Part shown: one piece after another, positions 246 to 17,796 of the stretch | How the letters are laid out: each line of letters begins with the position of its first letter | Numbering within the stretch: the stretch's first letter is position 1 | Assembly: GCA_038749615.1 (NCBI GenBank) | Contig: JBCDHV010000001.1 | Coordinates: 1 to 35,657 of the forward strand | Reading direction: 5' to 3' | Source of the DNA: Bacteroidota bacterium | GTDB lineage: Bacteria; Bacteroidota; Rhodothermia; Rhodothermales; DATKEJ01 | DNA: 35,657 nt | Translations under genes and position numbers: made by a program | The notes under the pieces: model-generated | Database searches by the model: none | Told to the model about the DNA's origin: nothing | Seen by the model: the letters and a program-made list of their open reading frames with translations, nothing else

Positions 246-1550
246 CTAGGCCGGTAGACCAGCCCTCGGCGAAAAGAGGAAGTCCGAGATCGAGGCCGGA
301 TCGCTTGCAAGCGCCCGGGTCTCGGTTTCGCTCAGGTGTGGGCAGTGCCACGCGAGCACGGCCGCACGCTTGCCCACCGGGTCGGCCTGGAGCCGCCGGC
401 GAGCCTGTTTGACGTAGGCCGCCGTCTGGTTGATGTTCGAGTGCCCGAGCTGGTCGGCGATGTCGAAGGCGGAGAAGGCGAGGTCGGCGAGATCCGTCGC
501 GTAGCCGTCGCGCAACTGGTGAAAGCTCGTGTCCGTGAGGCCTGCGAGTTGCCGGCAGCGCGCGAAAGCATTGGTGAGGGTTGGGGCCGGCACGCGCGTT
601 CGGTTCTCGCGCATGAAGACCGGGGCCATCGGATCGTCAGCTGGCATCCGCTCCATCTCCGTGCGAAGCGCGAGGGCGGCACGCGGAGAGAGCAGGACAT
701 CGCGCTCGCGGGCGACTTTGGTCACAAACGACTCCGGACGCAGCTCGCCAGCGCGCACGTACGGGCTTGACTCTCGGCTCCAGTGGCGCACCTGCACGTA
801 GCCCGATGCGTGGCCGGCGAAGAAGACGCTCCCTCGGTTCAGAAACACCAGCTCGCTGCGGCGCAGACCAGTCGCACGAGCGACCTCGAAGGCCGCTTGG
901 AGGACAGGCCGGTCGAGACGCTCGTAGATGCGGCGGAAGTCGGCGAGCGAAACCGGTCGGTTCTTCTTCGACTGCACGCTCCGGCGCTCGAGCAAGCTGG
1001 AGCCGGTCAGGTAGTCCGCCTGAAACGCCTTGGCCGGGTTCGTGTCGCACCAGCCCTTGCGAACGGCGATCTCGAAGAGCTGCCGCACGCAGCGGCTGTA
1101 GGTCGCGATCGTGTGCGCGCTGCGAGGCGTTCCGAGCAGCCACTCGCGCACGTGTTGAGCGGTGACGTGGCGCACCGGCGTGTCAGCACCAGCGGGGAGA
1201 CGAGCGCACAGGCTCCGGAACGCGGTCTGCCGGGCTTTCAGGCTCGCCGGCCGCTGGCGCTGAAAATACCGATTCGTCTCCTCGTGCACCTGGGCCAGGG
1301 AGACGGACTTCTTGACGGGATTCCACGGATCGTAGTCGCCGCGGAGCCAGTCGAGCTTGAGTTTGCGGTACTTCTCGACGGCAAACTCGATGTCGTGCTG
1401 CGAGATGTCGCCGAGGTCGACTTCGCCCATGCGCCGGCGTACCCGTACCGGGTGGCGGTCTGGATCCTCGAACGTACCGTAAATCAGGTTGCCTTGCCGG
1501 CCGCGGTAGAGCATGCCGCGGGGCAGTTTGGGGCGTTTCGTCTTTCCCAT
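246..1550 (-). CDS. int: Tyrosine recombinase / phage integrase
   Basis: Lies in ORF 246..1604; I start it at the ATG of MGKTKRPKLP (1550). Catalytic-domain motifs are TGLRRSELVFL (Arg), HQLRDGYATDLA (HxxR) and LGHSNINQTAAYV (His...Tyr). Confidence 0.9.
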   Translation of the reverse strand: MGKTKRPKLPRGMLYRGRQGNLIYGTFEDPDRHPVRVRRRMGEVDLGDISQHDIEFAVEKYRKLKLDWLRGDYDPWNPVKKSVSLAQVHEETNRYFQRQRPASLKARQTAFRSLCARLPAGADTPVRHVTAQHVREWLLGTPRSAHTIATYSRCVRQLFEIAVRKGWCDTNPAKAFQADYLTGSSLLERRSVQSKKNRPVSLADFRRIYERLDRPVLQAAFEVARATGLRRSELVFLNRGSVFFAGHASGYVQVRHWSRESSPYVRAGELRPESFVTKVARERDVLLSPRAALALRTEMERMPADDPMAPVFMRENRTRVPAPTLTNAFARCRQLAGLTDTSFHQLRDGYATDLADLAFSAFDIADQLGHSNINQTAAYVKQARRRLQADPVGKRAAVLAWHCPHLSETETRALASDPASISDFLFSPRAGLPA

Positions 1551-1555
1551 AGGTA

Positions 1556-1593
1556 TGTGTGCGTTTGATGTCTGATGATAACAAACGCACACA
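1556..1593. promoter_or_regulatory. Perfect 12-bp inverted repeat (TGTGTGCGTTTG-N14-CAAACGCACACA) in the int / dprA-like divergent intergenic region
   Basis: Arms at 1556-1567 and 1582-1593 are exact reverse complements. The repeat sits 6 nt upstream of the int start codon on the minus strand. Confidence 0.45.
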
Positions 1594-1608
1594 AATGATT
1601 GCACAGGT

Positions 1609-2820
1609 GTGCCGGCTTCGTTTGGCCGGACGGTTACTCAGATGTATAATTCGGCAATGGTCCAACCCGTCACCACATTGAGCGCTTCAGCAGACAAAAA
1701 CGGACTGCAGATTGGCCTTTTCGACGATGCGGAAGGGCTTCGAGCAGGCTTGCTAGGCTTGTCACAGACCCCAGGGGTCGGCTTGCAGTCGCTCAAGAAG
1801 CTTTACCGCACTGGCTTTTTTCTCGGATTGCCATCCGCTCCAGTTGAGGATCTTGTTGAGCGGGCTGTAAAGGTTCTCTCTGGGGCGAGCTTGGAAGGTG
1901 TACGAGAAGCACTTGGCAACAGAGAGAAGGTCATGCAGCGAGGCCGCAAGGTGCTCGGTGAGCTTCGTGCTGCTGAAATTCATGTCACTTTTGAACACGA
2001 GAAGTCGTTTCCTCGCCGTCTTCGAGACCTAGCTGAGCCTCCGCTTTGGATTTTTTACAGAGGAAGCTTGAAAGCGATATGGTCCAGAACCGCAGTCGCG
2101 CTCATAGGCACGAGAAGCCCCTCCGATTTTGGGGCCCGGCTAGCTTTAAACTGTGGATTTCATCTAGCTACGCGTGGCCATGTGGTTCTCTCGGGTCTTG
2201 CCCGGGGCATTGATCAGGCAGCGCACGAAGGGTGTCTGGAGGCAGGCGGCATCACCGTTGCTGTTCTGGCACAGGGACTTGCTTCGGATCTGTCAAGTAC
2301 AGCCAAATCGCTTGCCAACGAGGCAGTTGCAAACGAAGGAGCAGTCGTCTCTGAGTATTTGCCTTTTGATCCGCCTAACCGGTCAGCTTTTCTGCGTCGC
2401 AACGAGATTATTGCCGCTCTCGCTCGCTTGGTTGTGCCCGTTGAGTATCCGGAAGTCCAGAGTGGGACCGGTGCTACCGTTCGGCGAGCAATGGCGATAA
2501 AGCGTCCGTTGGCCGGAATTTCGAGCAGTCGCTTCGAAGGGCCAGCATCTGAAGCGACTCAACGCAACTTGAGGAGCGCAGGCATTACAGTCTACGATCT
2601 CCATAACGGCGAGGCTGAGCGCTTCTGGACGCATGTAGCGAAGCTCGTGGATGCTCGCGAGGCAGCCGAGAACAGACGAACTTTGCTTGGCCGGCGTGCT
2701 GAGCATTTTGCCCGCCTGCTTGCAATCGAGGCTAAGTCGCGCTCCATGGATCCAGGCGAAATCGATTCGTTCTTGGATCTTCTTACGAAAGCAGTTCGGA
2801 GGAGCATTGCCGGTGATTAA
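1609..2820 (+). CDS. DprA/Smf-like (SLOG Rossmann) protein; ShosA-like
   Basis: Motifs match the DprA Rossmann core: LIGTRSPSDFGARLA...VVLSGLARGIDQAAHEG...GITVAVLAQGL...SEY...FLRRNEIIAAL. An N-terminal HhH/SAM-like LGLSQTPGVGLQSLKKL is also present. The start is uncertain (GTG 1609, ATG 1642 or ATG 1657). Confidence 0.8.
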   Translation: MPASFGRTVTQMYNSAMVQPVTTLSASADKNGLQIGLFDDAEGLRAGLLGLSQTPGVGLQSLKKLYRTGFFLGLPSAPVEDLVERAVKVLSGASLEGVREALGNREKVMQRGRKVLGELRAAEIHVTFEHEKSFPRRLRDLAEPPLWIFYRGSLKAIWSRTAVALIGTRSPSDFGARLALNCGFHLATRGHVVLSGLARGIDQAAHEGCLEAGGITVAVLAQGLASDLSSTAKSLANEAVANEGAVVSEYLPFDPPNRSAFLRRNEIIAALARLVVPVEYPEVQSGTGATVRRAMAIKRPLAGISSSRFEGPASEATQRNLRSAGITVYDLHNGEAERFWTHVAKLVDAREAAENRRTLLGRRAEHFARLLAIEAKSRSMDPGEIDSFLDLLTKAVRRSIAGD

Positions 2821-3952
2821 GCTACTCGTCACCGATGGAGACGGAACCCTATTCGCTCCGAGTGAAGCGGACTACCTGGGCGATTTTCGTGTATGGCTAA
2901 GGCAAGAAGGGATTGCGCTTGGGGTTGCTAGCAATGGACAGCGAGGAGTGATTCTCCGCCGGTTTGCCGACCACGGGATTAGTCCTCCAGACTACATCGT
3001 CACTCGGGCAGATGTGGGCAATAAAAAAAAGCCGAGCCCTGCTTTTGTTGATAAGCTGATGGAACAGGCAGGCGTAGAGCCAAGAGAGACTGCTTACATT
3101 GGAGATGACGAGAGAACGGATAACTATTTGGCTATCAATTCGCGAGTCATGCCACTGCTGGCAAGGTATTCGGAGGGCTACAGTGGCAAGTACGCATTTC
3201 CGATTAGCTCGCTTTATGGGTTGAAGCGTTTCTTAGAGGTCTTCGGCCGTCAGCCTGCTCCCTACTTTGGGTGGGTGTGCAAGAGTGACAACTATGACTT
3301 CCGCGCTGTAATCAGCCAGCACTCCCGCATAGGAAGCCAAATGCGAGCGGTTCTCAAGGAGCACCGCGACGTGCAAGTGGGTCCGGGAATGAGCCTGCGA
3401 CCCCTGCTGTTCTACTACACACTTTCGCAGTGCTACTTGAGTGGTGCACACGATGGGAAACGACTCATCGCCGTCTATCCTGGCAGTCAACCCAAGCGGC
3501 CCAACTCCACGCTGGCTGAGTTTGGTGAACTTTTCGACCTGACCTCGCAATCCAACTACCTTACAGATCTCCTAATCCGTGAGAAACCCGCCCCAGAACA
3601 GAAGAAGGCTGGAGTCCGGCGGTCGTTTGGTCCGCAGCTCGAGACCGTTCGCCTAAACGATGCGCACAAGAGGAGAATCAGTGGAAAGAGCGTGTTGGTA
3701 CTCGACGACTACACAACGTCTGGCGTGAGTCTGGCTGTCGCCCATGCACTTCTCAAGCAAGCAGGAGCAAGCAAAGTGATCGGCGTAGCCATCGGTAAAT
3801 TCCGAAACAAGCAGCGCGTCGTGAAGCTGCCGGCGAGCTACGACCCCTTCCGTGTCATGTCAGCTGGCACCAGGCTTGAAGAGGACGTACTCGATGGCGT
3901 GCAGCACGCCGAAGCTGATCAGCATTTCTACGACCGGGTCATTTCCGCGTGA
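2813..3952 (+). CDS. HAD-like phosphatase domain fused to a phosphoribosyltransferase (PRTase) domain; ShosT-like
   Basis: GTG 2813 is preceded by GGAGGAG and overlaps the upstream stop (GTGATTAA). HAD motifs are VTDGDGTL (DxDxT), GVASNG, KKPSP and YIGDDERTD. The C-terminal PRPP loop is SVLVLDDYTTSGVSL. Confidence 0.75.
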   Translation: MIKLLVTDGDGTLFAPSEADYLGDFRVWLRQEGIALGVASNGQRGVILRRFADHGISPPDYIVTRADVGNKKKPSPAFVDKLMEQAGVEPRETAYIGDDERTDNYLAINSRVMPLLARYSEGYSGKYAFPISSLYGLKRFLEVFGRQPAPYFGWVCKSDNYDFRAVISQHSRIGSQMRAVLKEHRDVQVGPGMSLRPLLFYYTLSQCYLSGAHDGKRLIAVYPGSQPKRPNSTLAEFGELFDLTSQSNYLTDLLIREKPAPEQKKAGVRRSFGPQLETVRLNDAHKRRISGKSVLVLDDYTTSGVSLAVAHALLKQAGASKVIGVAIGKFRNKQRVVKLPASYDPFRVMSAGTRLEEDVLDGVQHAEADQHFYDRVISA

Positions 3953-4015: not shown

Positions 4016-4459
4016 TCAATCCAAGAAGGGCGGTTGGTTCCAGTGGCGGCCCACTGCACCCTCACTCCATTTTGGTAGCTTTCTTCCCTGATAGATTGCC
4101 ACGAGATCGTTTCCACAGGTAGACGTATAAGATTTTCCTTTGTGATCTTCGTACGTAGACCCGATTCCTGTTGTGTTTACGTGGCCAAGCCACTTGAGCA
4201 AAAATACAGACCCTTTGGCCATTGGCGGGATTCGCACAGGATTAAACCAGGATCCGGAGGGGTTCTTCTGAGCCACTACAACGTTGAGTGCGGGACCGTT
4301 TCCTATGTTATGGATACGCCAACCGGTATCTCCGTCATATTCTATTGAGAGCACGGGTACTATCCGAGACCTGAACGAGCGAAGCGTCTGCCAAAATGAG
4401 AGAGCAAACGAAACAAGTGAGAGGATAAAAGCAGGAGCAATCAAGGTCTCGAAATCCAT
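4016..4459 (-). CDS. Small membrane-anchored protein (N-terminal TM helix plus beta-rich domain), unknown function
   Basis: 147-aa ORF in low-GC DNA. The N-terminal hydrophobic helix is LIAPAFILSLVSFALSFW. It is convergent with the PRTase gene. Confidence 0.55.
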   Translation of the reverse strand: MDFETLIAPAFILSLVSFALSFWQTLRSFRSRIVPVLSIEYDGDTGWRIHNIGNGPALNVVVAQKNPSGSWFNPVRIPPMAKGSVFLLKWLGHVNTTGIGSTYEDHKGKSYTSTCGNDLVAIYQGRKLPKWSEGAVGRHWNQPPFLD

Positions 4460-4517
4460 CTTTTTTGGACAGGTCGTGCTAGGTACAAGCGAGATCGCCC
4501 GCCGGCTTCGCCTTTAA

Positions 4518-4540
4518 CCGGCAGCGTCCGGGGCTGCCGG
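4518..4540 (-). terminator. GC-rich hairpin (8-bp stem CCGGCAGC/GCTGCCGG, 7-nt loop) downstream of the HD-GHKL gene
   Basis: The stem was read directly from the sequence. The flanking U-tract is weak on both strands, so a terminator function is tentative. Confidence 0.3.
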
Positions 4541-4764
4541 GTTTCGGCCAGCAAGCGTGCATCGTTCGCTAGCTCGCTGATGGGCTCAGCGTTGCCCTCG
4601 TGTCCGTGGAGCCGGCTCGTGACAGTCTCTGCTGAGGGGAGCGACGTGAAGTGGCATGTCTCGCTCCTCTGGTACCGGCGCTGTAGATGCCGGCGGGTCT
4701 CGGGCGTAATTCTGTTTGCCAGCTTGTGGCTAAAAAAGCAGCTATCCCAACGTTGGGTGGTGGT

Positions 4765-7389
4765 TCAGTTTTCGGAGTTTAATATCCTATTTAAGTCTAG
4801 AACACCGAATGCATACCATTTGTGCCGCGTACTTGCAGACACTTCATCCATGGGCCTCACACGCCAATCGATCTGATGCGACAAATCTTCGATGTGGACC
4901 GAGAGGACGCGAGCTGCCTCTTCAAGGAAAAAGTCGAACAAAAGGTTTTTGTTGGTTTTAGGCAGTTGCTTTGTATTCATGCCGTCAGGGGAATTTCCAA
5001 ACGATTCCACATCGTCATTTGAACTTTGAGTAGCCTTCCATTGATGTTCAATTATCAAGACGTTGTCCGGGATCGGGATGAACACTGGCGCTTGATTTGA
5101 GACGAAAAACGGGTGTACAAAAACTATCTCTTCGTGCTGCAGAAAATCTGAAATGTTGGATTTACATATGGCGCCAGAACGTGTAAGCGCGAATGCTAAA
5201 TCGCCTATGTCGCCTCCAAAGGCGCTAATTTTTTCTGCTACCTCGATCTGCGTGCGAATCGGAAGACGTAAAGCCTCAGCGAGGCGGGCTTGCTCGGTAG
5301 CCCATGTTGCATAAATGGTCATATCTCCCATTAGCGCAGCCTGATTTCTGGCGGCTACACTCGGCACACTCTTTAGCACGCCCTGAAACTGAAGCGAATC
5401 GGACGCTCTGAATCCCCCAGTGGTAAGCAAGCCCCTGTCAGCGGATCTGGAGCTCGCGTTGCCGTCCTCGTCCTCATCAAAGAATGTAGGAATAGCAATG
5501 CATGCTCTTCCTAAATTGTCATCCAAGATGCGCAGTCGTGCCCCGTCTCTATCACGCTCCTTTTGGATTGACCCGCCAGAGTCGATCCGGTCAAGCAGAG
5601 TCTGCCCCTCAATACTGAGCCAGTCGTTTGCTTTCACCGCAAGAGTCAATTCGCCCTCATCGGCGTAGAGGTCGACATCCAAAGTTGGGCAAAGCCATGC
5701 GCAACATTGTGCAAGCGTGAATGTGGAGTGTCGCGCACGCGCAACTAAGAGTCCCGAATTCGCCGGCGACAGGCCATCGCGAAACCACACCCTGACGACT
5801 GTACCGGCATCAAGCAGTTCAGGTGTGACGTTGCCGGTTTTCAGAATAGGCCGGGTCCCGAGACCACCGGTAAATTCCAGTGTGAGCGTCTCGCTGCTTG
5901 CGCGGTCCGGCCGGCGTGTGACAACCCGGACGTGGTCACCCCACATGAAGACGGAGAAGAAACCAATGCCAAACTGGCCGGTGGCCTCAAACCCCTTGCG
6001 CTCCAAGCCGGGCAGCTCCGCATGCATGAGCGACGATCCCCAGAACGAGGTGCTAAAATCCAAAAAGGGTCCCGTCAGCACGTCGACCGACATACCGATA
6101 CCTGTGTCCTTAACCTCAAGCCAGTGGCCGTCGTCGTCTTGGCCAGTGTGGACGACGATGTGCCCCCAGTCGTTTTCTCTGGATTCGAGCAGCCGCCGGG
6201 CACGCACGGCGTCGGCTGCGTTCTGAATCAGCTCACGGAGAGGGACCGTAGGGCTGTCTCCGTAGAGTTTCTCGCCCCCCAAGGCAGAGATGAGGGAAAC
6301 GACATCACTCACCTGCACGCGGGCGTCGACGGGCAGCCAGCCGTTTGTGCGGACGAGCTGCGCGAGGCTTTCGGGGGCGTCGGTGTAGGCGACGCTCCGA
6401 GCTGCTAGCCGAGGCCGGTCCGTGTCGGCAAGCAGCGTGTCGGTTCGGCGCAACTCTTGGTCGACCATGCGGAGCGTGTCCGCGCAGAGCCACCACGCCT
6501 CTGCCTGGGCTTCCTCGAAATCGCTGCTCGAGGTGTACTCGAGCCGGTCTCTTTCGAGCCTGGGCTGATTGAGTTTGGCCTGAAACGTCCAGTGATCCGC
6601 GCTGTAGCCTTCAGGCCGGCGGAGCGCGTGAAGGAAGGGATCTGCCCGCCGCTTGTCCAGGTGGCTGGCGTCGGCCGTGCGGAGCATACAGGCGAGCTTG
6701 ACGGGATCGATCGTCCACCTCCTATTGAATCCCCCAGGCGCTCCTATTCTCGAGGGGAAGCCCCTTGCGATCTGATCGATAGGCCACCAATGGCTGTGGG
6801 CGATCCGGCCGATCAGCGAGCCGTAGCTGCTCCGGAGGTTCGCATCCTCAATCAGGTGGAGGGTGCCGCCGGCCGGGTCTGGCCACGAGACGAGCGCGAG
6901 CCGCTCGGCCTGCTCAGCGTGCCGCATCCGCAGCACGTGCTCGGTTGCGCGCTGGGCGATCTCAGCCGGCGGATCCTTGATCTGCTCCTCGGTAGCCGGC
7001 CGGCCGTGTTCGCGCCGGAGCATGCCGGCCACCGTGTCGAGCCAGAGGTCCGAGCTCTTCAGCTCCTCAATGCCGGCCGGGTAGGCAGCCAATCCCAGGC
7101 CGAGGTCGTGGATCAGGAAGGCGCCGCCGAGCACGTACGCCTCAGCCGGGGTGATGGGGTAATCGTCGCCGGCGATCAGGTCTGCCATCTCCCAGAGCGC
7201 GTCGATGTGCGTGATATCGTGGACCGTGAAGTCGGGGAGGTCACGACCGATCTCGGCAGCCAGCGTGGCGGCTCGCTCTCTGAAGCGCTCGAAGCTGGTA
7301 CGCAGGCGAGTGCGGTTGCTCTCTTCAGGGTCGCCCGTCCGCTGGGCCAGCGTTCTGTGCCAGAGATTCGTGTTCGCGTACCGGGACAT
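4765..7389 (-). CDS. HD-domain plus GHKL (Hsp90/MORC-type) ATPase protein, 874 aa
   Basis: The N-terminal HD-type dyads are FTVHDITHIDALW and AFLIHDLGLG. The central Bergerat fold shows LRELIQNAADA (N box), EVKDTGIGMS (G1) and TGQFGIGFFSVF (G2). Confidence 0.85.
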   Translation of the reverse strand: MSRYANTNLWHRTLAQRTGDPEESNRTRLRTSFERFRERAATLAAEIGRDLPDFTVHDITHIDALWEMADLIAGDDYPITPAEAYVLGGAFLIHDLGLGLAAYPAGIEELKSSDLWLDTVAGMLRREHGRPATEEQIKDPPAEIAQRATEHVLRMRHAEQAERLALVSWPDPAGGTLHLIEDANLRSSYGSLIGRIAHSHWWPIDQIARGFPSRIGAPGGFNRRWTIDPVKLACMLRTADASHLDKRRADPFLHALRRPEGYSADHWTFQAKLNQPRLERDRLEYTSSSDFEEAQAEAWWLCADTLRMVDQELRRTDTLLADTDRPRLAARSVAYTDAPESLAQLVRTNGWLPVDARVQVSDVVSLISALGGEKLYGDSPTVPLRELIQNAADAVRARRLLESRENDWGHIVVHTGQDDDGHWLEVKDTGIGMSVDVLTGPFLDFSTSFWGSSLMHAELPGLERKGFEATGQFGIGFFSVFMWGDHVRVVTRRPDRASSETLTLEFTGGLGTRPILKTGNVTPELLDAGTVVRVWFRDGLSPANSGLLVARARHSTFTLAQCCAWLCPTLDVDLYADEGELTLAVKANDWLSIEGQTLLDRIDSGGSIQKERDRDGARLRILDDNLGRACIAIPTFFDEDEDGNASSRSADRGLLTTGGFRASDSLQFQGVLKSVPSVAARNQAALMGDMTIYATWATEQARLAEALRLPIRTQIEVAEKISAFGGDIGDLAFALTRSGAICKSNISDFLQHEEIVFVHPFFVSNQAPVFIPIPDNVLIIEHQWKATQSSNDDVESFGNSPDGMNTKQLPKTNKNLLFDFFLEEAARVLSVHIEDLSHQIDWRVRPMDEVSASTRHKWYAFGVLDLNRILNSEN

Positions 7390-7692: not shown

Positions 7693-9579
7693 CTAGAGCA
7701 TGGGGTTATCCAAGTCCTCCTCCGAGTAGTTCATTTCCTTGAGAAGATCTTCAATATTGGTTTCCATGCCAGAGAGGAGCCGGTCAAGAACACGGTCGTA
7801 ATCATCCTCCAGCTTACCGAGGCGCTGCCGCACGCGCGTGCGGCGCACCTCAATGGCCCGAAGTCGCTCATTGTACGATTTTATCTTACCGTCGTAGCTG
7901 CCCGAAGACTCTAGTTTTTCTAGTTTTGTAGCTTCAAGACTTGCAATCTCATCCAAAAGCGACTGGTGCTTTTTTATTAGATGAATGCTAATGTTCTCAC
8001 CTGGAGATAAAGTGATTATACCTTCAACCTCCTCAAGCTCAGATCGAAGACTTTTAGTCATAGCATCGATTTGGTCAATAGATCTTGAGAAAGCTTCAGA
8101 TTCGCTGATGATAGCGTCAAGTTGCAGCAGGGCGGAGTCATATGCGTCGTCCTCTTGAGCAATCCTGGTTCTGGTGTCGCCTATTGCTGCCTGGATTTTG
8201 TTCAATAGAGCATCAGTCTTAGAGTCGGCATGTGCTTCGTCTTCCTCTACTCTAAGACGGATCTCGGCTCTTTGCTTATCGAGCTTCTCCCGCTTCTCTT
8301 TTTCAGCAGCGTCGTTTTCTCTTTTCTCATCCCTCGCCCTTTGGCGGGCTCGTCGAGATCTTTCGGCTTCGTCTAAGAGCGATTTGTCTCTACGAGCTTG
8401 TGCCTTTTTGAGGTCGAACTCGTTAAGCCATTCTTCAAAATCATAGTCGCGTAAAGGCGATCTTGAGTAAGACCGGTTCTCTTCATATTCGATATACTCA
8501 TCGTAGGCGCCTTGTATGTACCTTTCCCACCTGCTCTGGAGATACCCGTTCAGGTATAGCCTAATTGCGTGTGGCTGCAGCAATTTTATCAGAATCGTTG
8601 AAAGGAACATCCCGTAAAGCAGCAGGATGGCTAGTCGCTCGGCCTTTTGATATGCATTATTTGAGCCCATGAGCTCGATCTGGATCTGTCGATTCGCAAA
8701 TGATCCAACTAGGGAGGGGACACCGTAGGTAGTCACCAGAGAGTCGTAAGGCATGCCTTTGATTCTCGCCGACTCTGAATTGAAGAGAGAATCAATGGCG
8801 CTCAGCTCAATCTCCTTGGCCTTGATGTTCTGTTCCATGGAGATGGCAACGACACTCCTTCCATAAGACCGAGATCCCCCGGTGCCATTAATTTCTGCAG
8901 TAAGACTGTCTCTGAGTGCATCGAGAGAGCTGGTGAGTTTAGCCTTGCGGTCAGCATTTCTAGACCGGAGAGTGTCAACGAGCACTCTCCTTTGCTCGCC
9001 ACGCTTCTCGGCCAAGGCAGCGTCTATATCCTCAGTGATCAGTATCTGAGCTAGGTATGGAGCAGTTATGAACGTGAAGCCAAGCAGGACGCCAATTCGA
9101 AGCGAAACTGCCAAGAACAGCTTTAAAGATTCACCAGACGCAAGACTATATATGCGGGCAAAAATGGAATCCAAGTGTTCTGGCTTGCCCTCCCTGTCTT
9201 CCTGGGCCAAATAAGACGGTTTCGAGAAATCGCTGGTTATGAAGGTGGAATCGATAAACCATATCATTCCAGCAACAACTAGCCCAACGGCTACACCAGA
9301 GATCCACCTGCCAGCCGTACTTTCAAAAGGCAAAATATCCTGAACAATGATCGTCCAGGTAAAGCCTTCTATGATCGCCATGGCAATGGCTAAAAACGCC
9401 ATAGCCCCTAGCCATGCTCCTGCTAGCGGTAGTAGATTCTTCCTTCCATGGGGACGCATCAGCAAGGTTCGCCTGAATCGCTCCCCTGTCGAAGGTTCGT
9501 CCCGAGTCAAATCCGGGTGCTGCGTTTCCTTAGCGCTACGGTGTTCCATAATTCCCCGCGAAGTATCAAATAATTCCAC
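7693..9579 (-). CDS. Multi-pass membrane protein with internal and long C-terminal charged coiled coils (DUF4407-like)
   Basis: Four hydrophobic helices are visible (LAGAWLGAMAFLAIAMAII, ISGVAVGLVVAGMIWFI, LFLAVSLRIGVLLGFTFI, LAILLLYGMFLSTILI). The motif EINGTGGSRSYGRS is present, followed by about 250 aa of E/K/R-rich heptad-like sequence. The start is GTG 9579 or ATG 9549. Confidence 0.75.
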   Translation of the reverse strand: MELFDTSRGIMEHRSAKETQHPDLTRDEPSTGERFRRTLLMRPHGRKNLLPLAGAWLGAMAFLAIAMAIIEGFTWTIIVQDILPFESTAGRWISGVAVGLVVAGMIWFIDSTFITSDFSKPSYLAQEDREGKPEHLDSIFARIYSLASGESLKLFLAVSLRIGVLLGFTFITAPYLAQILITEDIDAALAEKRGEQRRVLVDTLRSRNADRKAKLTSSLDALRDSLTAEINGTGGSRSYGRSVVAISMEQNIKAKEIELSAIDSLFNSESARIKGMPYDSLVTTYGVPSLVGSFANRQIQIELMGSNNAYQKAERLAILLLYGMFLSTILIKLLQPHAIRLYLNGYLQSRWERYIQGAYDEYIEYEENRSYSRSPLRDYDFEEWLNEFDLKKAQARRDKSLLDEAERSRRARQRARDEKRENDAAEKEKREKLDKQRAEIRLRVEEDEAHADSKTDALLNKIQAAIGDTRTRIAQEDDAYDSALLQLDAIISESEAFSRSIDQIDAMTKSLRSELEEVEGIITLSPGENISIHLIKKHQSLLDEIASLEATKLEKLESSGSYDGKIKSYNERLRAIEVRRTRVRQRLGKLEDDYDRVLDRLLSGMETNIEDLLKEMNYSEEDLDNPML

Positions 9580-9815: not shown

Positions 9816-10529
9816 TCAGTCGTAACTCAGTCCGCAGTGGCGTCTGTCTGCAGGTAAGCTGAACTGCCTAGTTCCTTTGCCTCGCAAGTGCTCTCGCAAG
9901 CGAAGCCAGTCTCCGTCATACGTCCAATTTGATAGCGGTACGACTTTGACATATCCCTTCTTTCTATCGTTCTGGTTCTCTCTCCACGCGTTTCCCCCCG
10001 CTGCTCTCAGCGCGGCGTAGACTGCCCATATCCGATCTGGTCTGACTTGAAGATCTTGCATTGCAGCTCGCATGACCTTGTCCGCAGTCTCACGGTCTTC
10101 ACATTCCTGGGTCCAATAGAGATAATCGTGGATAATAGCGGCACGCTTATGCTTGCCAGCAACAGATACGTACGACCTTACACGTGGTGGTACGCTTGTC
10201 AAGTCGGTAACAAACCCTGCTGGGACAACGATTTTCTCTCCTCTGGTACCAACTTCGTAGATCATATTCTGAGCAAGCATCCAGAACTTTCCGTCCCTAA
10301 AGTCTAACAGCGCCGCCCTTGTAGGTGGTTTTCGATATGGGTCGTTAAGGTCAATTAGGTACAAATCGTCGTCGAGAAAACTCGCGCTGTCAGCAAGTGA
10401 GGTTACATAAAGCCAGAACATTTCTTTTGAAGAACTTTCACGGGGATAACTAATTTCCCTGTAGGCACACCCTGATAGCCATAGGACACATGTAAAAGCT
10501 AGAGTTACAGTAAGCGTGTACTTTCTCAT
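9816..10529 (-). CDS. DUF1353-family lipoprotein
   Basis: The start is at MRKYTL, with a signal peptide and lipobox (VLWLSGC). The DUF1353 signature is GFVTDLTSVPP...AAIIHDYLYW. Confidence 0.8.
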   Translation of the reverse strand: MRKYTLTVTLAFTCVLWLSGCAYREISYPRESSSKEMFWLYVTSLADSASFLDDDLYLIDLNDPYRKPPTRAALLDFRDGKFWMLAQNMIYEVGTRGEKIVVPAGFVTDLTSVPPRVRSYVSVAGKHKRAAIIHDYLYWTQECEDRETADKVMRAAMQDLQVRPDRIWAVYAALRAAGGNAWRENQNDRKKGYVKVVPLSNWTYDGDWLRLREHLRGKGTRQFSLPADRRHCGLSYD

Positions 10530-10820
10530 GGCAAGAATGGTCGGCACGCAGCACAAAGAGTAGGAGGGGCAAGCCTAACAGGTTTCCTACTGGCATTCTA
10601 ACGACTGATGTTGAACTTAGTCAAAGGCGTTCGGGATTGATTAAAAAATATACAGCCGGCGCAATAGACCGGAAAACCCCGGCATCCGGCATTTCAGCAC
10701 TGGCCGGCTAGTCGAGGTAAGTCTCCGGCCCATCGAGTTCAATCAGGAGAGAGTCGATGGCGTCTAGTGGCGGATCGTCGGGACGCGTGGTGCCGGTGAG
10801 GTGCCGGCGGGTGAGGAAGG

Positions 10821-10857
10821 TCACCGGCTCACCAGCCGGCTCATCTGCTGGGTGATG
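10821..10857. repeat. Direct-repeat copy A: orphan remnant of a repressor 3-prime end (minus-strand frame ...SITQQMSRLVSR-stop)
   Basis: 32/37 identical to 12767-12803, with 24 nt identical (10834-10857 = 12780-12803). The remnant frame is closed after 14 codons by the YbjQ gene stop at 10866-10868. Confidence 0.8.
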
Positions 10858-10865
10858 CTGGTTAC

Positions 10866-11918
10866 CTACGAGTGCGTCAAAACCCGCGTGAGGGCATCGG
10901 CCCTGTTGAGCAGCCGGTTGATTACTACTGGTGGGGATACGTAAGAAGAAGGAACGCCGTACACGTCTCGCCGGCAGGTTGAGCAGCGGACGTCTTCCTC
11001 ATGAAAGCTTGCTCCGCACGCACCGCACAGGCGGACCACGACCTCTTCTTTTGAAAACATGCCCACGGTGCGTTGTTCGTTCACCACGGTCACAGGGAAT
11101 TGCTGCTCGACCAGCTCGGCGACTCTGCGCATGGGATTGATGTCGCCGGCTCCGTAGCTGCGCTTGGCTGCACCCGCAGCGGTAAGCCCGTTCAACCGTA
11201 CCTCTTCGTCTTCGCTCATCAGAAGTGGCCGGATGCGCCCTGGATCGAACAGACGGCCTTGCTCGACGACGATGCGCCCGAGCTCACCTGCGGAAAGCAC
11301 CGGACGCGCTAGCCAACCATAGACCGCCTCCTTCGCCGCCTCTTCGGGAAGCGCAAGAACGTATTTGATGATGGGGCCCGGGTTATCCTTATCAAGTCGC
11401 CGCCTGCTCTGCGCCAGCTCAGCGTTGATTTGCGGCAAAGCTGCTGGCGACCGGTGTTTGGCTGCAAAGGCGAGGTCACGCCTAGAGAGCGAGGACGTGT
11501 TTGCTGCTATCTCGGCAAGACGCATTTGAACCCCGAGAGCGTCAGCGTCTATGCGACTCGGTCTGTTCGGCTGGTCAGCGGGCGTGTCTAGCGTTACTGC
11601 TGTACCAGAAGCGGTCACCATGAACATGCTTTTGCCGCCCCCTGAGACCTCGTCAAAATCGACACGCACACCCACAACTGCGTGGGCTCCGCGATCCAGA
11701 CCAGCGTCGGCAAGCTGGTCAAGGACTTCCTTGTTGATCGAGGCCAACTGCTTGTGGTACGACTGGGATCGGCCACCGAACACGTCGCTGAAGCTTGCCG
11801 CCATGTCAGCAAAAAGATTCGTGCCGGCAACGACGTAGGCCGAAACTACTCCGAGGTACCCGGTAATGCGTGCGCCTTCGACGTGTGGAGTTGTGGTGAC
11901 GATGATTGGGGAAGCCAT
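10866..11918 (-). CDS. YbjQ (UPF0145/DUF74) domain protein with helical middle region and C-terminal zinc ribbon
   Basis: The first ~105 aa align with E. coli YbjQ as I recall it (TTP.VEG..I..YLGVV...G.N.F.D......GGRS.SY.K.L...GA.AVVGV..D...V....MFMV.ASGTAV). The C-terminus carries CGACG...CSTCRR. It is the last gene of the minus-strand lysogeny operon. Confidence 0.85.
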   Translation of the reverse strand: MASPIIVTTTPHVEGARITGYLGVVSAYVVAGTNLFADMAASFSDVFGGRSQSYHKQLASINKEVLDQLADAGLDRGAHAVVGVRVDFDEVSGGGKSMFMVTASGTAVTLDTPADQPNRPSRIDADALGVQMRLAEIAANTSSLSRRDLAFAAKHRSPAALPQINAELAQSRRRLDKDNPGPIIKYVLALPEEAAKEAVYGWLARPVLSAGELGRIVVEQGRLFDPGRIRPLLMSEDEEVRLNGLTAAGAAKRSYGAGDINPMRRVAELVEQQFPVTVVNEQRTVGMFSKEEVVVRLCGACGASFHEEDVRCSTCRRDVYGVPSSYVSPPVVINRLLNRADALTRVLTHS

Positions 11919-11982
11919 GCAGAGAAAAAAAACTGATAAGGCAGGTTTGAAACAGTGGCGAGATCCTGCAAGGCCCGTCGGC

Positions 11983-12747
11983 TCAGCGGCTGGGGAAGAG
12001 TTGCTGCTGCACCGCGCCGGCCATGCTCGTAATCGCCTCCTTCACTTCGCGCATCAGCATTTGGGAAACTTGCCGGCGTGGCCACAAGACAGGGCCAACC
12101 ACACGAAAGTCCACCTTCCGTCCGGTCTCTTGCTGAATGAGTGTACCGTCGTTACCTGGGGTGAGTACTTCGTCACGGTAGCCGGTGGAGCGGTTGTCGC
12201 ATTTTAGCACGAGACTACCATCACTGAGACGCTGGACCCGCCTAAGAATGAGGCGTCCATTGACTTCGAGAACGTGGCGACCCGAGCCGGCAATGCGGTC
12301 GGAAGCTCTGTAGAAGACCACGTCACCTTCGGTTGCACTTGGCTCCATGCAGTCGCCAGTCACGGCCCAGATTCCAATCTGTCCACCAAGCTCTATCCCG
12401 AGCACGGTTTGCAGGACGTAGCGATGCAGAAAGATCTCTTCAGTCTGATCTGACCCTGTGAGCCGGCGGTCGCAGACAGTGATCGCTACGTACGCATCGC
12501 TCGGAATTGGCCGCCGAGCGGAAGAGACCACGCTTGCAACTTCGCCTTCAGCTAGCCACTCGAAAGACACTTCCAATACGTGGGCATACAGAGCAAGCGC
12601 TCGGTTTGGAACGGGGTACTTCCCGGATTCATGTCGAACCACGCTGCGTAGATGCATCCCAGTCTTGTCCGCTAATTCGGACTGCGTCAGTGATCGGCGC
12701 TTCCGAGCTTTTTTCAGGCGGACAGAAACAGGGGACTCAGAAGGCAT
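11983..12747 (-). CDS. CI/LexA-like HTH-XRE plus S24-fold protein with substituted catalytic dyad (Ser to Cys, Lys to Arg)
   Basis: The HTH is RRSLTQSELADKTGMHLRSVVRHESG. The S24 region reads GDCMEP instead of G(D/T)SMEP, and LILRRV instead of VKRL/VKRI. Confidence 0.85.
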   Translation of the reverse strand: MPSESPVSVRLKKARKRRSLTQSELADKTGMHLRSVVRHESGKYPVPNRALALYAHVLEVSFEWLAEGEVASVVSSARRPIPSDAYVAITVCDRRLTGSDQTEEIFLHRYVLQTVLGIELGGQIGIWAVTGDCMEPSATEGDVVFYRASDRIAGSGRHVLEVNGRLILRRVQRLSDGSLVLKCDNRSTGYRDEVLTPGNDGTLIQQETGRKVDFRVVGPVLWPRRQVSQMLMREVKEAITSMAGAVQQQLFPSR

Positions 12748-12766
12748 GAGTGCGAAAGCGTCAGCG

Positions 12767-12803
12767 CTACCGGTTTACGAGCCGGCTCATCTGCTGGGTG
12801 ATG
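12767..12803. repeat. Direct-repeat copy B: genuine 3-prime end of the CI repressor gene (...TITQQMSRLVNR-stop)
   Basis: This is the partner of 10821-10857, 1946 bp away. Confidence 0.8.
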
Positions 12804-13504: not shown

Positions 13505-13593
13505 TTTTAGACATTTTGATATTGCGTAGGGGCCTAAATTTGGCTATTCTACGGGTGCAAGAGCTATCTGTTACACCCTAAAGATATCAGGCC
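13505..13593. promoter_or_regulatory. Divergent immunity-switch intergenic region with candidate operator half-sites
   Basis: It lies between the CI gene (minus) and the RHH gene (plus). An imperfect inverted pair TGATAT-N3/4-TAGG occurs at 13517-13530 and 13577-13589 (reverse complement). GGGTG-N16-CACCC occurs at about 13553-13578. Confidence 0.35.
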
Positions 13594-13773
13594 ATGCCTA
13601 CGGATCAAATCATAGTTCGCGTTTCGAGGACGGAGCGCGAACGGATTGAGCGGGCCGCAGAGATCGACAGGCGGTCTCGCAATCAGTTCTTGAGAGTCCA
13701 CGGCCTCGAAAAAGCCGAGCGTGTGTTGCGCGAAGCCGGCGAACTCGAACGCGAGGAGGCCGGCGATGCCTAG
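13594..13773 (+). CDS. Ribbon-helix-helix (CopG/Arc-like) protein, 59 aa; positional Cro analog
   Basis: It is not in the ORF track because it is under 60 aa. My translation is MPTDQIIVRVSRTERERIERAAEIDRRSRNQFLRVHGLEKAERVLREAGELEREEAGDA, which has a beta-strand/helix/helix pattern. Its stop overlaps the next start (ATGCCTAG). Confidence 0.6.
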   Translation: MPTDQIIVRVSRTERERIERAAEIDRRSRNQFLRVHGLEKAERVLREAGELEREEAGDA

Positions 13774-14407: not shown

Positions 14408-14628
14408 TGATCCAAGGACCTGAAATCAGAGCCGGCCAGCTCGTGCGCCTGCCGTCGTGGAGCTATCCGCTTCGTGTCACGGGCGTCGAGCACGAGGGCT
14501 CGATGACATGGCTCGTCGGCGAGTTCGTCGGCGAAGGAGCCCCTGAGGGCCGGCGTGAGCGCGTGATTCTGCCGGACATGTACGTCGAACTAGCGCCGGA
14601 TGCCGGCGCTGGGGAGGTGCCGGCATGA
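14404..14628 (+). CDS. Hypothetical early protein, 74 aa
   Basis: ATGA overlaps occur at both ends. The motif is IRAGQLVRL and the protein ends in EVPA at the conserved junction 17-mer. Confidence 0.55.
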   Translation: MMIQGPEIRAGQLVRLPSWSYPLRVTGVEHEGSMTWLVGEFVGEGAPEGRRERVILPDMYVELAPDAGAGEVPA

Positions 14629-14912
14629 GTCTAAAAACTGAGCACATCAACGAACGGGCGATCCGGCTTGGCGACGGGGCGCTTTATGTCCCCTCGGAAG
14701 ATGCGGAGTTCGTGTCGATCGATATCCATAGTGATGTCGCTGTGCACACGGAAGAGCCCGAATTCACGGCTGCGACAGGCCTATGGTGGTCGTCTGACGA
14801 GATCGAAGTTGGATACGTGGACCCTGAGGTGGCCGCTGCTGAACTCTACCGCATTGTCCGGTATCAGTCGGGCCGGCTGCACCGCCTCGAACGAGTGGAG
14901 GTGCCGGCATGA
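14625..14912 (+). CDS. Hypothetical early protein, 95 aa
   Basis: It starts and ends in the conserved GGAGGTGCCGGCATGAG junction. Confidence 0.6.
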   Translation: MSLKTEHINERAIRLGDGALYVPSEDAEFVSIDIHSDVAVHTEEPEFTAATGLWWSSDEIEVGYVDPEVAAAELYRIVRYQSGRLHRLERVEVPA

Positions 14913-15148
14913 GTCAGTACCGCAACACGAAGCCGGCTCGCGAGCTGGCCGCCGGCGATCTGGTCTTCGTCCACGCCTGTGATTTGATCTCCGGCGTCAT
15001 CATGGAGATCGTCACGGTGGATAGCGACCCGCCGGCACCGAGCATCGCCAGCGTGGCGAGCGCGCGGGCGTTCTTGGTCAACATCGACGCAGACGCTGAG
15101 GTCGAACTCGTCGGCACCGTACGCGAAACGGAGGTGACGGATGGCTAA
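14909..15148 (+). CDS. Hypothetical early protein, 79 aa
   Basis: It starts at the junction 17-mer. The motif is ELAAGDLVFV. Confidence 0.6.
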   Translation: MSQYRNTKPARELAAGDLVFVHACDLISGVIMEIVTVDSDPPAPSIASVASARAFLVNIDADAEVELVGTVRETEVTDG

Positions 15149-16325
15149 CCTGAAAATGACGGTGGCCTACGGGGCCGACCGTATCCAGATCGAAGCCGAG
15201 TCCCTGGCGGAGTTGCTAGAACTCGCCGCCGGCATCGCTGAACTCAACGTCGATTACGAGTATCTGCTGGAGCGCGCGCACGGGCGCGTGGTGCCGGCCT
15301 ACCGGATCGACGACGAGGGCAACGACTACTTCGGCTTTCGCGATCTCGCCTCGGGGGCAAACCAGTCCTTTGGGCGCAAGCGCGAGAAAGGCTCGGCCGT
15401 TCCGTTCTTCCCGAAGCGAGCTGAAGGGTTTTGGGCTCCACAGGATTACGTAGAACCTCAGCCCACTGCGCTAACTGCAAGTCCTGCGCGGCCGGCTGAA
15501 CCTCGTGCGACCGCTCGCCGGCCACGTGTAGCCGCTGTGGCCGGCAATTCTGCCCCTGTTGGCGGCTATACGCCGGGCCAAGAGTCCGCACTCGCTCCGT
15601 GGCTGGTTGCGCGTACCAAGCTCCGCGAGCTCGGCGTACGCGACCCGCAATCGATTGCGGCTATGCGCATAGCCGAGGGTAACCCTCAGCTCACGTGGAA
15701 GCAGGCCACGCCGGCCACGCTCTCGCTCGTCGAGGGCATGGCCCGGAAGGCGAAGACCGACCGCGGATGGGACGCTGAGGCCTTCCTGCATTTCGCCTGC
15801 CAGTGGTGCGAGCGCGAAGGTGTCGTGCTCGACAAGGTGGCGCTCAAGGCCATCGCTGAGGCCTACGCGGAGACGCAGGGTGAACCAAAGAAGCCGACGG
15901 GCGGACCCGGCCGGCCGCTCACCTCAGAGGAGTCGCGCGAGCTCACAGGGCTGCTGAAGCAGCTCACGCACGAGGGGCTCCAGGACTTGCAGAACAAGGC
16001 CGGCTTCGTGGGTCTCTCGTTCTACACGCTGGAGGCCTTGATGCAGCGCCGGCTCTTGAACGGCCTGCGTGATCCGCTCGGCATTCGCAATGCGGACACG
16101 GCAGGCCTCGTCTCGTGGATCAACCGTGAGATCGCGAATTGCTCGCCAGCGCATCTGGATTTCGTGATGGGTGAGGCCAAGCAGAAGATCGAAGCGCTCG
16201 CGAGCGGTAACGACTTGAAGCGTGACGAGCTGATCGAGCATCTGAACGCCTGCATCGCCGAGCGAGGGGTCGGGTCGGAGACCCCGACCACTCCCACGCT
16301 AGGGTTGACCGGAGGTGAGAAATGA
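15141..16325 (+). CDS. Hypothetical early protein, 394 aa
   Basis: SD GGAGGTG lies upstream. It overlaps both neighbours. I recognised no motif. Confidence 0.7.
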   Translation: MANLKMTVAYGADRIQIEAESLAELLELAAGIAELNVDYEYLLERAHGRVVPAYRIDDEGNDYFGFRDLASGANQSFGRKREKGSAVPFFPKRAEGFWAPQDYVEPQPTALTASPARPAEPRATARRPRVAAVAGNSAPVGGYTPGQESALAPWLVARTKLRELGVRDPQSIAAMRIAEGNPQLTWKQATPATLSLVEGMARKAKTDRGWDAEAFLHFACQWCEREGVVLDKVALKAIAEAYAETQGEPKKPTGGPGRPLTSEESRELTGLLKQLTHEGLQDLQNKAGFVGLSFYTLEALMQRRLLNGLRDPLGIRNADTAGLVSWINREIANCSPAHLDFVMGEAKQKIEALASGNDLKRDELIEHLNACIAERGVGSETPTTPTLGLTGGEK

Positions 16326-17620
16326 GCCAGCGAGCGATGCTGAAGGCCCGCGATCTTGACATCCGCGTGCCGGCCGAAAAACTGACGTTGATGTGTCTAG
16401 CCGACCGCGCGCACGACGACGGCAGCGGGGCGTATCCGTCGCTCAAGCGGCTCGCCTACGAGACCGGAGCCGGCGTCGAAACCGTCCGCGGCTACCTCAA
16501 CAAGTACGAGGAGCTGGGCTGGATCACGTGCACGGCACCGGCCCGCAGAGGCCGCGGAAAGACGTACGCGTTCGACTGGGAGCAGTGCTCGTTCTTGCCC
16601 CCGTGGGAAGCGCTGGATGCCGGCGAGCGAGACGTCGCGCTCGGGCAGCGGAAGCGAAAACGGCCGTACCAGACGAGCCGAAAAAAGAGCGCGTCGCCGG
16701 TGGCGGAACCCTCCGAAAGACCCCCAGAATCTGGGGGTCAACAGGACGAGCGTACACCCCCAGGATCTGGGGGTCAAATTGAGGAATGGGGCCCAGATCC
16801 TGGGGGTCAACTGAGCGAAAGACCCCCAGATCCTGGGACAATGACCCCCAGATCCTGGGATCGCACCTCTTTAGAACAGTCCAAGAACTCTTCTTCATCA
16901 TCAGGTAGTGGTAGGCTAGAGAGCGAGCCGGCTCCGAAAAACGAGCCGTCAAACCCGGATTTGGCCGCTGCGCGGCGGGATGATGATGATGATGGAAAAA
17001 TTGATTTGAGTTGGCTTCCCCAGCACCTGCGCCATCACGGCTCGCAGCTCCGCGAGGAGATCACGACGCTCGGCCGGTCGGTGCTGGTGCCGGACCTCGC
17101 CGCTCGGGTGGTGACGCTGTGGGGGGCCGGCGAGCGCACGGCCAAATCCGTCAAGGGCTGGGTGGTCTCGAAACGCAAGGACTACCCAACGGCCTCGGTC
17201 TTGCTCGCGGCCATCGTGACCGCGGCCGAGGCGGACCAGCCGAACGCTCGGTACGCGAACAAGGTGCTCCGCCAACTCCCCCCTCTTGGGACGGTGCGCC
17301 GGATTCAGTCCAGCGCGGCGCGACAGGCCGATGAGACCTTCGCTCGGATGGAATCGCGGAACGGCTACGCTCGCCGGTACGGCGAACTCACCGCCGGCTG
17401 GTCGGACGAGGATTTCGATCGACTGCGGGAGGACGCGACGGCGGAGCTGCGTGCCACGCCGAGCGGATCGTTCCTGTGCCGGGAGGAGGAGGACGGGACG
17501 CTCGCCAAGATGCCGGGCTTTGATTCGGCGCTGCGGCAGATGATGCACACGCTCGTCGTCGAGACGGGATGGAGACCGACTGCGCCGGCCTCCGGAGAAG
17601 CCGGGGAGGTGCCGGCATGA
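16322..17620 (+). CDS. Replication initiator / replisome-organizer-like protein (N-terminal winged HTH)
   Basis: The N-terminal sequence LMCLADRAHDDGSGAYPSLKRLAYETGAGVETVRGYLNKYEELGWI is typical of phage replication HTH proteins. The gene contains the iteron array. The C-terminal part resembles a DnaD/DnaB_2-like domain (weak). Confidence 0.7.
   Translation: MSQRAMLKARDLDIRVPAEKLTLMCLADRAHDDGSGAYPSLKRLAYETGAGVETVRGYLNKYEELGWITCTAPARRGRGKTYAFDWEQCSFLPPWEALDAGERDVALGQRKRKRPYQTSRKKSASPVAEPSERPPESGGQQDERTPPGSGGQIEEWGPDPGGQLSERPPDPGTMTPRSWDRTSLEQSKNSSSSSGSGRLESEPAPKNEPSNPDLAAARRDDDDDGKIDLSWLPQHLRHHGSQLREEITTLGRSVLVPDLAARVVTLWGAGERTAKSVKGWVVSKRKDYPTASVLLAAIVTAAEADQPNARYANKVLRQLPPLGTVRRIQSSAARQADETFARMESRNGYARRYGELTAGWSDEDFDRLREDATAELRATPSGSFLCREEEDGTLAKMPGFDSALRQMMHTLVVETGWRPTAPASGEAGEVPA
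16719..16860. repeat. Iteron array: five copies of a palindromic ~20-bp unit (consensus about GACCCCCAGATCCTGGGGGTCAA), putative phage origin
   Basis: Copies lie at about 16719-16741, 16756-16777, 16790-16810, 16821-16838 and 16843-16860. Four of the five carry a central GATC. AT-richer stretches follow at 16861-16920 (about 45% GC) and 16975-17015. Confidence 0.7.
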
Positions 17621-17796
17621 GCAAGACGAAGACGTTCCAGGCAGACGCCGGCAAGCCTGGCGGTAATGGGCTGCGCCTCGTTGTCGAGACGGCTGAGGAC
17701 CCGACCGTCAGAGAGTTGCAGCGGAGCGGGTTGAGCCGGTGCCGGCGGCTGACTGAGCTAGCGAAGAAGAAAGCAAACGAGGGGGGAAAGCGATGA
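17617..17796 (+). CDS. Hypothetical protein, 59 aa
   Basis: It starts at the third copy of the junction 17-mer and has an ATGA overlap with the next gene. Confidence 0.5.
   Translation: MSKTKTFQADAGKPGGNGLRLVVETAEDPTVRELQRSGLSRCRRLTELAKKKANEGGKR

Follow-up and report, generated by a model that had tools for sequence, protein, structure and literature searches.

Elements such as e14 and phage 21, at the Escherichia coli icd gene, and many tRNA-integrating elements integrate at the 3' end of a gene and bring a replacement end with them. Mosaic joints with short shared junction sequences are likewise familiar in phage genomes, from the 'linker' idea of Susskind and Botstein and from the work of Hendrix and colleagues on morons. 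In lambdoid prophages, the region after the CI gene is a mosaic hotspot for lysogeny-expressed accessory and defence genes, for example rexAB of lambda and bstA of BTP1 (PMC7067206). Here we describe the corresponding region of a temperate phage on contig JBCDHV010000001.1, analyzed over its full 35,657 bp (the window). The 3' end of the resident repressor gene, cI-1, recurs downstream as an untranslated orphan, and the two copies bracket a second CI-type repressor gene (cI-2) and a gene for a YbjQ-domain protein. We propose that the repeat is an insertion scar in the accessory-gene slot downstream of cI, a reading that is well supported by the evidence below. The fuller proposal, which we hold with moderate confidence, is that recombination spliced a foreign 1.95-kb segment between the end of cI-1 and a native small open reading frame (ORF38) with its terminator, within the cI transcription unit. 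We regard the locus as a tidy case of the well-known uptake of accessory genes by phages and not as a new mechanism.

Direct reading of the sequence and repeat-finding tools agreed on the two copies of the repeat. The copy at 10821-10857 (TCACCGGCTCACCAGCCGGCTCATCTGCTGGGTGATG) and the copy at 12767-12803 (CTACCGGTTTACGAGCCGGCTCATCTGCTGGGTGATG) are identical at 32 of 37 bases, are spaced 1946 bp apart and share an exact core of 24 nt, all as a first-pass annotation of this DNA had stated. On the minus strand, the copy at 12767-12803 (R1) reads ...STITQQMSRLVNR* and forms the end of the 245-aa cI-1 gene, while the copy at 10821-10857 (R2) reads VTSITQQMSRLVSR and ends in TGA. The same annotation had described the repeated unit as the stop codon plus the last 12 codons of cI. 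It is indeed the end of cI that is repeated, but the 37 nt comprise the stop codon, 11 codons and one further base, and the twelfth residue differs (T versus S). R2 is an orphan, as had been suggested: going upstream, its reading frame runs into the YbjQ stop codon, a TAG at 10866-10868 that shares this frame and is 8 nt from the repeat. The claim that the repeats delimit exactly the CI-like gene and the YbjQ gene also held, the interval containing these two genes only.

The 24-nt core is the longest exact repeat of the whole window, in which about 6.6e-6 pairs of identical 24-mers are expected by chance. Only two copies of the core are present; no third copy was detected in the window with up to three mismatches allowed, none near the phage integrase, and none in 100 shuffles. 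All five mismatches between the copies (CTC/CTG, GTA/GTG, AAC/AGC and TAG/TGA) fall within 13 nt at the stop-codon end (12767-12779 in R1) and none falls in the core. The probability of this placement in the last 13 nt is 0.003, and that of any identical run of 24 nt or longer is 0.018. The clustering of the mismatches, with none in the core, therefore argues for a crossover in the shared 24 bp, unlike the uniform decay of a simple duplication.

Table 1. Features of the repeat locus (upper rows) and of the remainder of the window (lower rows). GC3, G+C content at third codon positions; HTH, helix-turn-helix.
Feature	Position	Strand	Remarks
cI-1, CI-type repressor (HTH + S24 peptidase), 245 aa	12767..13504	-	GC3 0.72
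R1, functional 3' end of cI-1 (ITQQMSRLVNR + TAG)	12767..12803	-	core 12780-12803
cI-2, CI-type repressor (HTH_3 + S24), 254 aa	11983..12747	-	GC3 0.61
YbjQ gene, long YbjQ family, 350 aa	10866..11918	-	GC3 0.65
R2, non-coding orphan of cI-1-type 3' end (ITQQMSRLVSR + TGA)	10821..10857	-	core 10834-10857
ORF38, 38 aa, probably native gene downstream of cI, no family match	10708..10824	-	GC by codon position 0.69/0.44/0.77
Probable intrinsic terminator of the cI operon	10643..10710	-	long G+C-rich hairpin 10653-10710, then UAUAUUUUUU; z = -2.4
Promoter-like site GTAACA-17-TAGAAT, divergent cI/cro intergenic region	13546..13574	-	consensus match only
59-aa ribbon-helix-helix gene (matches TacA1, NikA-like), cro position, divergent	13594..13773	+	
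Integrase	246..1604	-	
Shosta anti-phage pair adjoining integrase	1609-3952	+	ShosA DprA-like (PADLOC 1e-59); ShosT HAD/PRTase (PADLOC 1e-28)
874-aa HD-CE + HATPase_c protein	4765-7389	-	low-GC accessory arm
628-aa coiled-coil protein, marginal DUF4407 match	7693-9579	-	low-GC accessory arm
DUF1353 protein, PHROG 'tail assembly chaperone', lipoprotein-like N-terminus	9816-10556	-	GC3 0.49
Replication initiator (HTH_36; PHROG replication initiation)	16322..17620	+	

cI-1 retains the GAG cleavage motif, the serine of GTSMEP and the lysine of VKR, and past the S24 domain it has a C-terminal extension specific to its family, with the repeated tail at the end. The cI-1 family is small and rare. A search of 5.8 billion proteins yielded 16 homologs, all at most 56% identical, and the extension is common to all family members, ending T(I/V)T.QM(A/S)R(L/M).... 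Because the tail is the conserved C-terminus of this family, and is present in two copies only, the orphan is a gene fragment and not the generic dispersed element that the first-pass annotation had considered as the alternative. The orphan matches the core of cI-1 at 24 of 24 nt, compared to a nucleotide identity of 0.57-0.67 for the tails of the homologs, and among distant homologs nucleotide conservation is no higher in the tail than in the rest of the gene. We therefore place the orphan's parent in cI-1's own gene or in a very close relative of it. The possibility that the tail is a family-wide nucleotide-level 'linker' was rejected, its identity being no higher than that of the gene remainder.

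We compared the locus with 12 other repressor loci, which we numbered L001, L002, L003, L011 and L012, and L004, L022, L024, L026, L041, L043 and L044. The gene directly after cI differs among the relatives of cI-1, with a bPH_3/SHOCT gene in L001 and unknown genes in L002 and L003, showing that the slot is variable among distant relatives of the repressor. A duplicated repressor 3' end was present at none of the 12 loci, so the repeat has the look of a one-off and fairly recent scar, as opposed to a feature of the system.

cI-2 carries HTH_3 (2.9e-9) and Peptidase_S24 (1.2e-6) domains, and its HTH aligns to the 434 repressor. The first-pass annotation had called it a CI paralog, but it is not a recent one: cI-2 is 22% identical to cI-1, and in another phage contig its nearest homolog, P0139 (43%), takes the place of primary repressor, divergent from the early genes. 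A more distant likeness is to the c repressors of D3112-like Pseudomonas phages. The cI-2 gene begins 19 nt past the cI-1 stop, with the YbjQ gene a further 64 nt on, and given so short a gap cI-2 is without a promoter or regulatory region of its own. The protein has the HTH and S24 layout of a self-cleaving repressor but not its active residues. Cysteine (GDCMEP) replaces the catalytic serine and arginine (RRVQRL) the lysine, both of which are kept in cI-1 and in the repressor of phage RS1, and the Ala-Gly cleavage site is absent from the linker. P0139 has the cysteine together with lysine, plus AAGG. From these residues we infer that cI-2 is unable to self-cleave. Without the Ser/Lys dyad and the Ala-Gly site it would be insensitive to the SOS response, and it may be a non-cleavable repressor that would confer immunity against phages with its operator type or control the cargo.

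The YbjQ gene is full length and ends where its homologs end. Its product comprises an N-terminal YbjQ_1 domain (YbjQ/UPF0145, PF01906; Pfam 1.9e-27, residues 5-109), a HEAT/ARM-like helical repeat, a CxxC...CxxC zinc ribbon and a terminal helix. An AlphaFold2 model (predicted local distance difference test score, 89.5) matched 1y2i and 1vr4 with target-normalised TM-scores of 0.84-0.85; the fold search gave no functional clue, returning only structural-genomics YbjQ entries and weak ARM/HEAT matches. Pfam and PHROGs assigned YbjQ_1 and a family of unknown function. The long YbjQ family (350-370 aa) is widespread, with more than 400 matches, many of them named Bacteroidota or Verrucomicrobiota, and it is cellular, standing alone in bacterial chromosomes in non-phage contexts. 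PADLOC returned nothing for the YbjQ protein and matched cI-2 in its HTH part only (residues ~5-76; RmrA, capH), and a known defence system made up of cI-2 and YbjQ was rejected on this result. We likewise rejected a conserved pair: there is no YbjQ gene within 350 nt after the cI-2 homolog, and the long YbjQ genes stand alone in chromosomes. The YbjQ protein would be an accessory protein expressed in lysogeny.

The sequence on the far side of the orphan supports the placement of the cargo. The TGA of the orphan overlaps the GTG start of ORF38 (GTGA), an overlap that resembles the ATGA overlaps at native gene junctions on the other arm, and the G+C content of ORF38 by codon position is like that of native phage genes. 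The probable terminator of the cI operon follows ORF38, and no terminator-like site was detected between cI-1 and this hairpin. The overlap and the position of the terminator therefore suggest that the cargo is inside the cI transcription unit, and it looks as if the two genes lie upstream of the apparent original cI terminator. The promoter-like site between cI-1 and the divergent gene in the cro position is a candidate promoter for the whole cI-1/cI-2/YbjQ/ORF38 unit. In GC3, both cargo genes fall below cI-1 and ORF38 (Table 1) and below the core phage genes (0.75-0.82); this difference, together with the cellular homologs of YbjQ, marks the cargo as foreign to the surrounding phage genes. 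The use of Shine-Dalgarno sites is too mixed across the genome to inform on foreign origin. A scan for other operator-like repeats joining the cI/cro region to the cargo found nothing beyond chance. We also rejected a fusion of the orphan to YbjQ through recoding or readthrough of the TAG: cI-1 also ends in TAG, and the long open reading frames are intact under the standard code.

In the history that we favor, the incoming segment would consist of a promoter-less cI-2 and the complete gene for the YbjQ/helical-repeat/Zn-ribbon protein, and the ~12 terminal codons of cI would have been duplicated by the join. Of the two copies, the one upstream would leave cI-1 intact, probably with the last four codons of the donor (LVNR-TAG), and the downstream copy would be the native end (LVSR-TGA, overlapping the ORF38 start), now untranslated. 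The layout is A-[24]-[13 donor]-cargo-[24]-[13 native]-B, and two routes to it would fit equally well. One is a single crossover with a circle in the shared 24-bp core, giving a Campbell-type product; the other is an unequal crossover between phages that are closely related, with the cargo already present in one of them. In E. coli, homologous recombination becomes efficient from an identity of about 24 bp upward. In a lysogen, one transcript would run from the cI-1 promoter region through cI-1, cI-2, YbjQ, the orphan and ORF38 to the terminator, so that the cargo would be expressed along with the repressor, like rexAB in lambda and bstA in BTP1, and the 24-bp direct repeats could allow a precise loss that restores the cI-ORF38 junction. 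On the minus strand, the empty site is predicted to read ...GCGATCCTCTCAACC-ATCACCCAGCAGATGAGCCGGCT-GGTGAGCCGGTGA-CCTTCCTCACCCGCC..., and the predicted circle junction is YbjQ-TAGGTAACCAGC-ATCACCCAGCAGATGAGCCGGCT-CGTAAACCGGTAG-CGCTGACGC....

The earlier proposal that the gene pair was inserted, or is exchangeable as a module, at the end of cI is thus borne out in part. The insertion is supported by the orphan gene end, the low GC3 of the cargo, the completeness of the YbjQ gene and the apparent location of the cargo within the cI unit; the exchangeable module gained nothing from the 12 other loci, where no end is duplicated. Its comparison of the position with that of the rexAB-type genes of lambda is apt, the slot being the known rexAB/bstA slot (PMC7067206) with cargo that differs among the relatives of cI-1.

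Several points weigh against this history. No close relative was found, and hence neither an empty site nor a donor is in hand. A scan of genome_contigs and IMG/VR with the cI-1 protein alone returned nothing, and the back-translated ITQQMSRLV pattern gave two chance matches only in these collections (a non-coding frame of Photobacterium and a low-GC phage). Profile scans of IMG/VR and of JGI metagenomes yielded distant or partial relatives only, blastn against phages and plasmids gave no match, the neighboring early gene o394 has no relative in IMG/VR, and an exact-protein contig look-up of cI-2 had no record. The proteins are recorded from a single contig, and the collections searched yielded neither an empty site nor other cargo between such repeats, the nearest cI-1 homolog being 56% identical. 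In addition, the right-hand joint is placed only by way of the mismatch pattern, which itself rests on 37 nt; the GC3 of cI-1 is only modestly above that of the cargo; the proposed co-transcription is deduced from a fold and from scans for consensus sites; the contig, including its junctions, comes from a metagenome assembly; and the cI-2/YbjQ pair is not conserved elsewhere.

We evaluated other explanations for the repeat. The one that survives best, though we consider it unlikely, is a replacement of the immunity region, in which the orphan is the remnant of an older cI-1-like gene whose body, possibly with the cro side, was overwritten by a block of cI-1, cI-2 and YbjQ. The repeat would then mark only the left edge of a larger acquired segment and not a two-gene cassette. 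Two full repressor genes in tandem, each of a type that serves as primary repressor in other phages, are consistent with such an event, and so are a right-hand joint that cannot be located and early genes to the right of cI-1 that have no relatives to anchor them. However, cI-1 groups by its GC3 with ORF38 and the core genes and not with the cargo, and the clustering of the mismatches puts the exchange point inside R1. The orphan's parent was, moreover, nearly identical to the cI-1 tail, so that the replacement would have been by an almost identical allele.

A mobile cassette appears quite improbable to us. Here the 24-bp core would be an att-like site, and a non-autonomous unit of 1946 bp (core, cI-2 and YbjQ) would enter and leave cI 3' ends by means of a recombinase acting in trans or by short-homology recombination, which corresponds to the 'exchangeable module' of the first-pass annotation. 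The layout given above is the exact single-crossover product of a circle and a cI 3' end, and a second gene of the window (14625..14912) also lies between two direct copies of a gene junction, identical over 19 nt and in the same geometry as the cI-tail repeat. Yet there is no recombinase among the cassette genes and no further copy of the core near the integrase or elsewhere in the window; the tail peptide was met at no other locus, its matches in genome_contigs and IMG/VR being due to chance; the 12 other repressor loci have single ends; and the nucleotide sequence of the tail is not conserved in the family. We are similarly doubtful that the core is a dedicated recombination site for swapping promoter-less cassettes at the end of the cI operon, an integron-like slot of which the repeats around 14625..14912 would be a second instance.

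It is very unlikely that the 24 nt were kept in both places as a functional signal in DNA or RNA, be it for protein binding, processing or attenuation. A perfect identity beside 13 diverged nt, with both copies on the same transcript, is what such a signal could produce, but the RNA fold is no better than shuffled at either copy (z = -0.85 and -0.14), no further copies are present in the window, and the homologs show no conservation at the nucleotide level. An RNA structure or terminator at the repeat was rejected on the same folds. An assembly artefact or a chance similarity is hardly credible, even for a single metagenome-assembled contig with proteins known from that contig only, as the chance expectation is ~7e-6, final assembly k-mers are usually longer than a repeat of 24 nt, the junction of the YbjQ stop and the orphan must be in the reads for the contig to be built, and all three genes are intact.

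In several unrelated temperate phages, YbjQ-domain genes stand directly after genes for S24 or CI-like repressors. In Rhodovulum phage RS1 (L022, NC_020866, 388-1553), a Mu-like phage, a CI-like repressor gene is followed by a gene for a 161-aa Zn-ribbon-YbjQ protein at the genome end. In the related Rhodobacter phage RC1, of which only the match itself was inspected, YbjQ is matched at the same identity, again at the end of the genome. Two RS1-like IMG/VR contigs (L043 and L044, ~4140-5340) show a related arrangement. In the IMG/VR locus L041 (36% G+C; 4327-5927), the gene for a 310-aa YbjQ protein follows an S24 repressor gene after 12 nt. The order is S24, a 492-aa gene and YbjQ in L026 (2790-5978), the inspected member of 15 IMG/VR loci (L026-L040) with the same 53%-identical YbjQ match. 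YbjQ-domain genes directly behind S24 repressors were met with in at least three unrelated phage groups: the alphaproteobacterial Mu-like phages, low-G+C (36-41%) IMG/VR contigs and the phage described here. The phage YbjQ family is PHROG 15412, with its function listed as unknown, and full-text searches found no literature linking YbjQ with phages. The pairs in RS1, RC1 and the IMG/VR contigs share with our locus the order of genes, with an S24 or CI-like repressor first and then, on the same strand, a YbjQ-domain protein, often with a zinc ribbon. They differ in that the YbjQ-adjacent repressor is the phage's own primary repressor, in the absence of a duplicated 3' end, and in the YbjQ proteins themselves, which have 161-187 aa with an N-terminal zinc ribbon or 310-321 aa with a different C-terminal region. 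One could speculate that the cI-2-YbjQ pair is a 'repressor plus YbjQ' lysogeny module transplanted from a phage of another immunity type; speaking against the idea, the only cI-2 homolog has no YbjQ gene behind it.

The remainder of the contig has the layout of a temperate phage, with integrase, accessory arm, immunity region, replication, lysis and structural genes (Table 1). The HD-CE/HATPase_c and coiled-coil genes, for which PADLOC returned no match, may be further defence cargo. The DUF1353 gene, with a promoter-like site of its own (10595-10624), belongs to the accessory arm and is distant from the tail genes. Direct and inverted CCCAGATCCTGGGGGTCA repeats are clustered at 16714-16859 (+) inside the replication initiator gene and are probably iterons or an origin. 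Between the early and the lysis genes, a CsgG/FlgO-like lipoprotein gene and a 279-aa neighbor occupy the opposite strand (20850-21863, -) and may form another accessory island. The motif GG(GG)AGGTGCCGGCATGAG(TC), exact over 17-19 nt, is present at three gene junctions (14611-14631, 14897-14915 and 17603-17621, +). It consists of a Shine-Dalgarno sequence and an ATGA stop/start overlap, the three upstream genes all end in ...EVPA, and a weak fourth copy (77%) lies beside the orphan at 10792-10813. The contig is labelled 'MAG: Bacteroidota bacterium' (metagenome-assembled genome) in NCBI. Its G+C content is 62-66%, and several early genes have strong GGAGGTGA Shine-Dalgarno sites, which are unusual for Bacteroidota; the assignment of the host to Bacteroidota may be a binning error.

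If the insertion reading is true, the locus is an unusually clean fossil of how a temperate phage acquires an accessory module in its lysogeny operon. Since neither parental copy of the short shared sequence has been lost, the joint is readable to the base and the predicted empty site can be written down. The cargo is of more interest than the scar, being a second repressor without the self-cleavage residues plus a YbjQ-family protein. cI-2 could serve as an 'immunity gene' that is SOS-proof and directed against phages of another type, and YbjQ-domain proteins are cheap candidates for lysogeny-expressed exclusion or defence factors.

Compared to the systems named at the outset, the locus is closest in position to the moron slot of lambda rexAB and Salmonella BTP1 bstA. 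As in these prophages, the additional genes directly follow the CI gene on the same strand and apparently belong to its transcription unit. The cargo differs in having no homology to RexA, RexB, BstA or any PADLOC effector and in including a second full-length CI-type repressor. The duplicated cI 3' end also persists here as a scar, whereas we know of no description of such a scar for rexAB or bstA. An integron gene cassette was rejected, as the repeat is a fragment of coding sequence without an attC-type palindrome or any other significant fold, and no IntI-type arrangement with an attI site is present. The resemblance to e14 and phage 21 at icd is in the outcome: direct repeats of the target 3' end flank the element, the target gene remains intact by way of an incoming near-copy of its 3' end, the native end becomes a downstream orphan, and an identical core lies beside diverged sequence. 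Those elements encode an integrase by the att site, unlike the 1.95-kb insert, which is without a recombinase; the only integrase of the phage is encoded 9 kb away. As at the mosaic joints and linkers of other phages, the novel joint coincides exactly with a gene boundary, and the exchange could have been guided by a short stretch of shared sequence, but here both parental copies of that sequence remain, and it is coding, the tail of a repressor, rather than intergenic.

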